DNA of 64,000 nucleotides from Escherichia phage vB_EcoM_G17: the sequence record MK327931.1. One strand, 5' to 3'. The notes beneath the pieces were generated by a model. The model saw only the letters and a program-made list of their open reading frames with translations. It had not been told where the DNA came from and made no database searches. How positions within the stretch are numbered: position 1 is the first letter of the stretch; every line of letters starts with the position of its first letter. Below, one piece after another: positions 224 through 3,821 of the stretch. A program made the translations under genes and the position numbers.

Positions 224-805
224 TTAGAGAGATTCTTCGTATTCAGCAACAATCTCAACCATTTCATTAATGAACTTGATGTGAGAATGTGTCACTGTAC
301 GGAAGTCGTAAACAAGTGACTGTTGGAAAAATACATCTTCATCAAGAGAACCATCAAAGTTCAAATCAATGTTTTCATCGTCATTGCTTGGTGCAACTTT
401 AATATTCAGAAGATTTTCATCAATGAACTTGATGTGAGAATGTGTCACTGTACGGAAGTCGTAAACAAGTGACTGTTGGAAAAATACATCTTCATCAAGA
501 GAACCATCAAAGTTCAAATCAATGTTTTCATCGTCATTGCTTGGTGCAACTTTAATATTCAGAAGATTTTCATCAACTGCAAGTTTTACAACACAACCCA
601 GTGCAATGGCAAGAACATATGCTGGTTTCTTAGCTTTTTCATTACGGAATGGTGCACGTAGAGCACAAAAAGTACTGCTAATCTCATCATTTGGTTCTTT
701 GTATTTAACATTGACCATTAGTTCTTCGATTTTGACGCTCTCAATAACACGACCAGTTTCTGGAGCGAAGAAAGAATGTTCACGGATAGTTTGTTCGATA
801 TTCAT
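224..805 (-). CDS. hypothetical protein containing an exact 51-aa internal tandem duplication
   Basis: 193-aa ORF; residues DENLLNIKVAPSNDDENIDLNFDGSLDEDVFFQQSLVYDFRTVTHSHIKFI occur twice in tandem. Confidence 0.55.
   Translation of the reverse strand: MNIEQTIREHSFFAPETGRVIESVKIEELMVNVKYKEPNDEISSTFCALRAPFRNEKAKKPAYVLAIALGCVVKLAVDENLLNIKVAPSNDDENIDLNFDGSLDEDVFFQQSLVYDFRTVTHSHIKFIDENLLNIKVAPSNDDENIDLNFDGSLDEDVFFQQSLVYDFRTVTHSHIKFINEMVEIVAEYEESL
262..576. repeat. 153-bp direct tandem duplication (about 2 copies, 1 mismatch)
   Basis: sequence 269-421 is identical to 422-574; period 153 nt, in frame with CDS 224-805. Confidence 0.9.
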
Positions 806-808
806 ATA

Positions 809-1003
809 TTATTCCTTATTTAGATTGCTAAAAATACGAAGATTGCGGTTTGCTTTAAACTGTTTCAAATCACCAAATCTATCATCAACGATGAAAGTTG
901 CTGATTTCTTTGACTGACATATTGTACAAATCAACATACCTTGTATTGTATACTCAGTTGAGCAATTTGTACAGTACTTTTTTTCATAAAGTTCAGTACT
1001 CAT
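809..1003 (-). CDS. small Cys-rich (zinc-ribbon-like) protein
   Basis: 64-aa ORF with CxxC...CxxC spacing. Confidence 0.45.
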   Translation of the reverse strand: MSTELYEKKYCTNCSTEYTIQGMLICTICQSKKSATFIVDDRFGDLKQFKANRNLRIFSNLNKE

Positions 1004-1335
1004 AAAACCTTCACATCAGTACGTTTTTCTCTTTGTTCTTTTTTAACCTCATCAGTTCTAGTATCTTCTAATTGTAACACAACTTCTTTTAGAATGTCAA
1101 CATCAATTGTTGCTTCTACATATTGATAGTCGTTTACACCAAAAACATACTTTACTGCAACCCATACACGGTTATACCATTTTAAAAAAGGATTTAAACG
1201 CATACTTATCAGACATTGACCAAGTTTATCATCTCCATATTCCTCTGTCAAGTCAAATTGTGCAATGTGAACGCAATGCTCCATTTTATCGCCACAAGAA
1301 CAACGTAAAATATACTCTTTACTATCTTCACTCAT
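1000..1335 (-). CDS. hypothetical protein
   Basis: 111-aa ORF, tightly packed with neighbours (start/stop overlap). Confidence 0.5.
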   Translation of the reverse strand: MSEDSKEYILRCSCGDKMEHCVHIAQFDLTEEYGDDKLGQCLISMRLNPFLKWYNRVWVAVKYVFGVNDYQYVEATIDVDILKEVVLQLEDTRTDEVKKEQREKRTDVKVL

Positions 1336-1754
1336 ACTGGATAAGCCTTTAAAAATTGTTTAAGAACTCCAAACTTAGATGAATCGTAATCGTATTGATA
1401 GTTAAGCTCTCGCTTATCATTCATACGATACACCATATGAAAATTTGGATAACCAATTCTAACAGGTTTTTTAGGATTAGCAAGTAAAATTGCCCATTCT
1501 TTTACTGGAAATACGTTTTCAGTCAGCATTTTGATATTTGTTTCAAAATACTTCATGGCTTGCTTTCCGTGTTTGTAATCTTCTTCACTAATCTCTTGAC
1601 AATCAATTCTATGTGTTTCGGTATCTAACACCCATTGTTGATCTTCGGTATATAAATCAATTACATCATCAATAGTATAACTATCAGGTAAATCATAAAA
1701 TACCCAATGAGATAAACCAGAACTTACACCAATTCGAATTTTAAAGAACTTCAT
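1332..1754 (-). CDS. hypothetical protein
   Basis: 140-aa ORF, overlapping-stop packing typical of phage operons. Confidence 0.5.
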   Translation of the reverse strand: MKFFKIRIGVSSGLSHWVFYDLPDSYTIDDVIDLYTEDQQWVLDTETHRIDCQEISEEDYKHGKQAMKYFETNIKMLTENVFPVKEWAILLANPKKPVRIGYPNFHMVYRMNDKRELNYQYDYDSSKFGVLKQFLKAYPV

Positions 1755-1987
1755 TCTTTATCACCTTTTACATAATTATAACACACGACACAGTGAATTA
1801 CAAGAAGAATTATTTCCACAATGTTAAGAGACAATACATGACTCTGCGGTGTGAAAAGTGCCAATAACAACATTATAGCAGGTATTGTGAATATTTTCCA
1901 AGTTTTTTTCATTTTATTCCTTTGTATATGCATATGGTAAAAATAAAACCTCTGCATTAGGAATGCATTGTGCCAATCCTTCAACAA
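1751..1987 (-). CDS. small membrane protein
   Basis: 78-aa ORF with two hydrophobic segments. Confidence 0.4.
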   Translation of the reverse strand: MLKDWHNAFLMQRFYFYHMHIQRNKMKKTWKIFTIPAIMLLLALFTPQSHVLSLNIVEIILLVIHCVVCYNYVKGDKE

Positions 1988-2400
1988 TAGATTTGTTTTA
2001 TTACATTGCCAAACTTAGTAATTTTATGTCTAAATACTTTTTTATCAACGACAATCCAGTACATGTCCATTTTAACAGTACTGTTATCAGATGGTGTTAG
2101 TAAAGTATCGATGTCATATGTATCAAAGATTTGTCGTTCATATAATCTCCTAATAAAATATTCTCGATTCTCTCTTATATACCCAGATACACAGTTAGTT
2201 GTGGCTTGGTTAGTGAATGAAATCTCACTATTGGACACGCCATTTGCATCACACAAAGGACATATTCCCATGTACTTGGGGGTCGGGTAGGTGTCCAATT
2301 TGTATTTTTCATTACACACCATGTACTGCTGTGGCAATACATCTAATATTATTTCATATTCTTCATCAAACACCTTGAAGCATACCCAACATTTACCCAT
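1981..2400 (-). CDS. hypothetical Cys-containing protein
   Basis: 139-aa ORF. Confidence 0.5.
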   Translation of the reverse strand: MGKCWVCFKVFDEEYEIILDVLPQQYMVCNEKYKLDTYPTPKYMGICPLCDANGVSNSEISFTNQATTNCVSGYIRENREYFIRRLYERQIFDTYDIDTLLTPSDNSTVKMDMYWIVVDKKVFRHKITKFGNVIKQIYC

Positions 2401-2883
2401 TATAGTTTTCCTTTAACACCGTTCTTATATATTCGAATGTTTTAACAAACCAATCATGTTCGTCGGATACATCTACAACTTTACCACCATATACATAGTA
2501 ATGGTAAAAAGGTAACTTGCTTTTTCTTAATCTTTCGGCTAACTCTGGATTTTGAATTATCTTAGCACAAATAGCATCTTGAATAATAGAAATACAATCA
2601 TCCGTCATTTCAATTCGATCATGCATATATTGTTAGCGGCTGCTTTTGCTGCTGCACCAGATACTTTTCTAAGGTCATCATGTTTTTGCCCAGTTAAAAA
2701 CCAAAAGTAAAATGTTTCAACTGAAGGGAACCAACCATATGGTTCAAGTGTGAAGCTATGTGAAGAAAAGTTAGATAGATCTCTACCTAACTTAGTTCTA
2801 GCTTTACTATAAATGTTAATGTGTCGGTATCCATCATCAGTAGGGTCAATAAAGTCAAATGACTCTTCTGGAAACTCAAACAT
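2393..2883 (-). pseudogene. NADAR (YbiA-like) domain gene split into two overlapping ORFs by a frameshift
   Basis: ORF 2605-2883 matches the YbiA N-terminal motifs (LSNF...PYGWFPSVETFYFWF; compare E. coli YbiA FSNF...WPTSEHYFQAQKF); ORF 2393-2626 carries the AKIIQNPELAERL block (compare AKFEQHAELRALL); frames differ, stop at 2633-2635. Confidence 0.55.
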
Positions 2884-2885
2884 AA

Positions 2886-3122
2886 TTATTCTTCTTCTCC
2901 TGAAGGAGTTCCACGTAGTTTGTCAAAATCAACCCAAATACCATGCTGATTTTTAAATCTACATTTCTCATAGTACCAGCTATAGTCAGTTTCAACACCT
3001 TGTGATATAGATCTAACACTACAATCATACATATTATATAAATGATCCCTGACAATATACGTATTAATCAGAATAACAAACAATACAATAATACCACAGA
3101 CTTTAGGATGATCCATAATCAA
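2886..3122 (-). CDS. hypothetical protein with N-terminal hydrophobic segment
   Basis: 78-aa ORF. Confidence 0.4.
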   Translation of the reverse strand: MIMDHPKVCGIIVLFVILINTYIVRDHLYNMYDCSVRSISQGVETDYSWYYEKCRFKNQHGIWVDFDKLRGTPSGEEE

Positions 3123-3243
3123 ATCTAGAACGGAACTCGTTTCAGTACTGTCAATTTACTACGACCGATGGCAACAGCTTTCAGTACTGCTAATGATACC
3201 AGTAATGAAATAACAAGAACACTCAAATAAATTAGCATAATTA

Positions 3244-3821
3244 GACTCCTACACCAAAACGTAAAAGGATGTTATTAACAAACACAAAATCAAATGGAGA
3301 CTTTGGTTCAGATACCGAGTACTGAAAAGTTTCAGCGGAGAAACTTTCCCTATTGTGCCATGTTGATGAATCGATTAGTAATTGTTTATCACCAATTGAC
3401 GTTGAATGTAATGGAAAGTGTGCTGATGAATTTATGGAATACGCATTTAGTTTTCCTTGTTCATCTAATGTGATACTAAGATAATATTTTTTCTCAATAT
3501 CAGGAATAAGTTCTTTTGTATACGAATAGATTGAATCAACCCATTCATCATGTACATTTTCTGCACCAATCAGGTGTCCGAATGATAAATTACGTTTAAC
3601 TGGCTTTGATCCTGGTCGAGTTAGAATGAATTGTTTTGTTAAGTAAAAATTATTATGTTTACTTCAATATTAACATTTTTAAAATTCACAACTTTATCAT
3701 ATACATTTCGAAAAACTGTTATATCCCAAGTACTAATTTCATCCATAATACTTATCACCAGTTCTTCTAGTTCTTGGATAAATGGCAAATCATCCTGATG
3801 AAATCTAGTCATGGTTTTCAT
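3244..3821 (-). pseudogene. hypothetical gene apparently interrupted by a frameshift near 3640-3665
   Basis: 60-aa ORF 3639-3821 is followed by a 140-codon open frame (3244-3663) with no ATG/GTG/TTG start; an A5 run lies at the junction. Confidence 0.35.

Follow-up and report, generated by a model that had tools for sequence, protein, structure and literature searches.

A split conserved gene in the deposited genome of Escherichia phage vB_EcoM_G17 most likely reflects a sequencing or assembly error

Introduction

Residual homopolymer indel errors occur in assembled consensus sequences, in long-read assemblies and at badly joined contig ends. A different kind of split reading frame is known from programmed -1 frameshifting, as in E. 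coli dnaX and the phage tail-chaperone genes of the G/GT type, where an upstream ORF overlaps a startless -1 frame. A locus with this appearance is present in the genome of Escherichia phage vB_EcoM_G17 (genus Asteriusvirus; DSM 103244; GenBank accession: MK327931). The closest described relatives of the encoded protein are the members of the family phrog_23860, which are intact in the phages PBECO4 (AGC35114.1), slurp01 (SCA80562.1), 121Q (gp71, AIT13968.1), and Sharanji (gp270, WNN14551.1). The G17 locus resembles this family in that its two pieces jointly span the whole 190-position profile and the gene order is the same; unlike the relatives, the G17 copy is one A short, which leaves a 60-aa ORF and a startless frame. 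The window analysed here is a stretch of 64,000 nucleotides of the G17 record, and all positions given below refer to it.

Bacteriophage G17 was isolated from pig manure in Hameln. Its genome, sequenced at 203.6x coverage, was reported to consist of 370,817 bp with a terminal repeat of 20,649 bp and to contain 659 CDS at 91.1% coding sequence (PMC6563267). The genomes of that study were obtained using PacBio RSII and HGAP3 or MiSeq and SPAdes, and the contigs were re-linearised (PMC6563267).

Results and Discussion

Open reading frames at the locus

The genes of the locus are encoded on the minus strand. The first-pass annotation had described a 60-aa ORF followed by 140 sense codons in another frame with a five-A homopolymer at the junction, and this layout could be reproduced with the following features:

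3639-3821, minus strand: 60-aa ORF, with an ATG start, 60 codons at 3821-3642, and a TAA stop at 3641-3639
3663-3244, minus strand: downstream open frame of 140 sense codons in the -1 frame, bounded by TGA at 3666-3664 and TAA at 3243-3241
3645-3649: five-base run (plus strand, A5; coding strand, T5) in the overlap of both frames

The 60-aa ORF consisted of the true N-terminal part of the protein (MKTMTRFHQ...NIEV, to 3661), a codon spanning a shortened run, and five out-of-frame codons (NIIIFT in all), followed by the TAA. Scanning of the whole downstream 140-codon frame revealed no ATG or TTG; its sole GTG, with the first base at 3285, occupied sense codon 127, just 14 codons ahead of the stop. 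The earlier statement that this frame has no possible start codon holds in effect, since this late GTG is the only canonical start. The probability of 140 stop-free codons at the base composition of the strand, where stops amount to ~0.080 per codon, was P ~9e-6. Because of this low probability, and because both pieces match a single protein family from end to end, the 140-codon open frame is not a product of chance.

Conservation of the gene in related phages

Profile searches were conducted with the two pieces and with the intact protein of PBECO4. Residues 4-55 of the 60-aa ORF matched positions 1-52 of the 190 positions of phrog_23860 (E = 5.7e-26), residues 2-140 of the downstream frame matched positions 52-190 (E = 4.3e-76), and the PBECO4 protein matched positions 1-190 (E = 5.9e-109). 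The two pieces are colinear on one 190-position profile and therefore belong to one gene. By homology, the split ORF corresponds in G17 to a gene for 190-193 aa that is conserved in Asteriusvirus.

The megablast comparison of the region revealed matches to 33 records of jumbo E. coli phages of the genus Asteriusvirus, including PBECO4, slurp01, and 121Q, 13 of them at 99% identity or higher. One 573-nt CDS is annotated at the locus in slurp01, PBECO4, and 121Q, and a 582-nt CDS with an earlier start in ph0011 and Sharanji; in all five phages the gene is located between genes for a 199-aa and a 117-aa protein. When the intact 190-aa protein was used as the tblastn query, 33 of 34 phage records were found to encode it without interruption in a single frame; the exception was CMSTMSU, an Asteriusvirus record labelled UNVERIFIED_ORG. 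A search of 5.8 billion proteins returned 20 protein clusters, all 188-195 aa long and none truncated. According to both the tblastn and the cluster search, the protein is confined to Asteriusvirus-like phages.

The homolog comparison, which had been proposed as a check, settles that a single gene is broken, and the earlier suggestion of one gene interrupted by a single-base indel in a homopolymer is borne out, as the relatives carry one ORF of 188-195 aa. Among the relatives, dN/dS was ~0.15-0.2 on either side of the break, which indicates purifying selection on both parts and a functional gene in these phages. High conservation was also observed for the junction peptide around EVKHNNFYL, six of its nine residues (E50, V51, K52, N55, F56, and L58) being invariant down to 47% identity.

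In CMSTMSU (MH494197.1, 218003-219673), a continuous alignment was obtained only for residues 34-190, and the record has no annotated CDS at this place. Problems of sequence quality may affect the gene in this record as well.

No Pfam match could be obtained for the protein, and among the PHROGs it matched only phrog_23860, a family of unknown function. An AlphaFold2 model was of moderate confidence (mean pLDDT 61), and a Foldseek search with it against the PDB returned no match at E <= 0.001, with all TM-scores below 0.25.

These results also bear on a reading of the locus as two separate genes, the downstream one being translated from a non-canonical start such as ATT, ATA, or CTG. In-frame ATT, ATC, ATA, and CTG codons are indeed available, but the colinearity of the pieces on one profile (1-52 and 52-190) runs against such an arrangement, as do the 20 clusters, none of which contains a split homolog. 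Moreover, the break would fall inside a beta hairpin (strands 47-52 and 55-66) that is predicted by the moderate-confidence model. The probability of two separate genes is accordingly considered negligible.

An alternative start and independent homologs of the downstream frame, the two findings that would have spoken for a second gene, were looked for; one late GTG and no split homolog could be found. With its sole canonical start 14 codons from the stop and no split homolog in the 20 clusters, an independent downstream gene was rejected as a candidate.

Position of the missing base

Alignment with the relatives located the indel in the run next upstream of the T5 run on the coding strand, where G17 is short of one A in the context GAAGT-AAAA-CAT. 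The resulting features are:

3658..3660, minus strand: missing-base site (coding strand, A3; plus strand, TTT)
3241..3657, minus strand: C-terminal 138 codons of the split gene plus TAA, shifted to -1 with respect to the N-terminal part

This run is AAAA in Sharanji, slurp01, PBECO4, and 121Q, and AAAG in ph0011. The T5 run at 3649-3645 was invariant across all five aligned sequences (query positions T352-T356). As it is intact in every aligned relative, it is not the indel site, and the placement of the indel in this five-base run by the first-pass annotation was incorrect. When one A was re-inserted at 3658-3660, a 193-codon ORF was restored, of which the 190 residues from MTRF onward were identical to slurp01 SCA80562.1.

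The deletion allele was absent from the viral, metagenome, and genome contig collections searched, no protein corresponding to the 60-aa product is on record, and megablast of complete E. coli genomes produced no match.

Evaluation of recoding at the T5 run

The two-frame layout could in principle be decoded by the phage as a regulated event, through a -1 ribosomal shift or polymerase slippage at the T5/U5 run (3649-3645). The downstream frame does lie at -1 relative to the 60-aa ORF, and a tRNA-Phe on UUU 3647-3645 could re-pair with UUU 3648-3646 just before ACU UAA, so that a low-level unprogrammed slip on U UUU could take place. The sequence surrounding the run, however, offers little for a programmed event. 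No X XXY YYZ heptamer was present in the zero frame of 3660-3639 (AAC ATA ATA ATT TTT ACT TAA), and the longest run in the overlap is five bases, far below known transcriptional-slippage tracts, which typically have nine or more. The 85 nt downstream had a minimum free energy of -7.5 kcal/mol compared to a shuffle mean of -10.2 and folded no better than shuffled sequences (z = +1.04; 175 of 200 shuffles at least as stable); by this comparison, no stimulatory stem-loop or pseudoknot could be recognized 5-9 nt downstream. The relatives are equally at odds with recoding, as the frame is single in 33 of the 34 phage records and the length is 188-195 aa in all 20 clusters. A shift at the T5 run would also produce VNIIIFYL where the relatives have VKHNNFYL, which is highly conserved. 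Regulated decoding of the split is therefore regarded as highly improbable.

The locus differs from dnaX and the G/GT type by lacking the slippery heptamer, the stimulatory structure, and a conserved split, and programmed recoding was rejected as a candidate on these three grounds. Nothing new about recoding can be learned from this split.

Clustered anomalies in the window

The window was compared with the genome of phage Sharanji (OR545507.1), which was the best match over the first 25 kb and was assembled from deep Illumina NovaSeq data. The comparison revealed six single-base deletions, one mismatch (421), one 153-bp tandem duplication, and nothing else. All differences, the duplication included, fell in window positions 262-3658 and hence in an anomalous initial 3.7 kb, while the other ~60 kb (3659-64000) were identical. 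In addition to the deletion at 3658, the anomalies were:

1996..3155, minus strand: other single-base deletions, at plus-strand positions of about 1996, 2015, 2130, 2630, and 3155, in homologs of Sharanji gp266-gp269
262..576, minus strand: in-frame 153-bp tandem duplication in the gp261 homolog, with 2.1 copies and 99% matches

The six deletions, which occur within 1.66 kb, break five adjacent genes, the homologs of Sharanji gp266, gp267, gp268, gp269, and gp270. Each shortens a T3-T5 run of the plus strand by one T and hence an A run of the coding strand. If events were placed uniformly, six of them would be confined to 1,663 bp or less of the 64 kb with a probability of ~7e-8, and all six would lie in runs of three or more with a probability of ~8e-5. 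None of the six deletions was present in Sharanji, slurp01, PBECO4, 121Q, or ph0011 when six genomes, including the window, were aligned.

The plus strand of the deletion region (1996-3658) contains 48 T runs and 40 A runs, and the all-T outcome had p ~0.03. This mild strand asymmetry stays unexplained.

Several of the affected ORFs could be matched to deposited proteins by exact-sequence look-up. The ORF at 224-805 on the minus strand is G17_00226 (QBO61715.1), a 193-aa protein elongated by the 153-bp duplication; its cluster otherwise consists of 142-aa members, which were seen on more than 160 contigs, and the 193-aa length occurs only in G17. The single mismatch to Sharanji (421) lies within the duplicated stretch 262-576. 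The ORF at 1981-2400 on the minus strand (139 aa) is QBO61720.1, and the ORF at 2605-2883 is QBO61722.1.

QBO61720.1 is a fusion, in which the gp267 homolog (92 aa) runs into the frame of gp266 owing to the deletion at ~2130; two further frame changes, caused by the deletions at ~2015 and ~1996, precede the stop. The gp268 homolog (163 aa; 2393-2883, minus strand) is cut into ORFs of 92 aa and 77 aa by the deletion at ~2630. The gp269 homolog (117 aa, phrog_8041; 2886-3238, minus strand) is split by the deletion at ~3155, which changes AGTAAAATTG to AGTAAATTG and lies in the same AGT-AAAA context as the site in the split gene.

Origin of the deletions

The split, an ordinary one-base homopolymer deletion in a conserved hypothetical gene, does exist in the sequence as deposited, although the phage most probably lacks it. 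We infer that it most likely arose through an error of sequencing or assembly and not through mutation. A technical error is placed first because the 64 kb, which otherwise match Sharanji, contain six homopolymer deletions within 1.66 kb; this reading rests on the changes being deletions only, in homopolymers only, clustered, beside a tandem duplication, and accompanied by no substitutions. Such a pattern is that of a locally poor consensus and not that of natural divergence. As expected for a consensus error, the indels were confined to homopolymers, they were found in one record only, and repair of the split gene yielded the protein of the relatives.

In such a scenario, an A would have been undercalled in the homopolymer within a locally poor stretch of the assembly consensus, for example at a badly joined contig end. 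The poor stretch would cover at least window positions 262-3660 and may reach past the window start, and the 153-bp duplication is likely part of the same assembly problem. The reported mean coverage is high (203.6x), and the poor stretch would therefore have to be local. The phage itself would make the normal full-length protein, with no recoding involved.

The G17 deletions resemble residual homopolymer errors in that they are single-base, clustered, near a spurious-looking duplication, restricted to one record, and accompanied by an inflated CDS count: the 659 CDS of G17 are high for the genus, whose other members have ~550-620 annotated features. The publication names no platform for G17 in particular, either in the main text or in supplementary Table S4 (PMC6563267). 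The mild T-strand asymmetry counts against a technical origin, as it is not obviously predicted by a consensus of double-stranded sequencing.

Alternatively, the G17 stock may truly carry the six deletions, so that the gene and its four neighbours would be fresh pseudogenes in a dispensable accessory block. The deletions are present in the sequence as deposited, homopolymer slippage is a normal mutational route, and the bias to one strand could fit a replication-strand effect. The affected genes are also small and hypothetical with no detectable domain, and hence plausibly non-essential in the laboratory. Against this reading, six frameshifts would have had to arise independently within 1.66 kb, without a single substitution, beside 60 kb that do not differ at all from a foreign isolate. 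No known natural mutation spectrum fits this pattern, with its clustering probability of ~7e-8; runs of 3-5 bases are weak slippage sites, and none of these alleles occurs in any other assembly. Real deletions in the phage stock are thus considered unlikely. A more specific version, in which a localised, strand-specific frameshifting process would have inactivated the five-gene accessory block in G17, silenced or rescued at a low level by slippage at short A/U runs, is considered very improbable.

With a consensus error as the preferred explanation, these results serve mainly to flag the quality of the public G17 entry. In MK327931, six frameshifting undercalls and the 153-bp duplication appear to affect a stretch of no less than 3.4 kb. 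These anomalies yield split, fused, and elongated hypothetical proteins that are already in the databases (QBO61715.1, QBO61720.1, QBO61721.1, and QBO61722.1). Should the deletions turn out to be real, five Asteriusvirus genes would thereby be marked as dispensable for laboratory growth.

The identity of G17 to Sharanji over 3659-64000 was 100%, with Sharanji originating from chicken faeces in India and G17 from pig manure in Germany in 2016. This divergence is unusually small for independent isolates; the other relatives at 99% identity or higher differed by ~0.4-0.9% over the first 25 kb.
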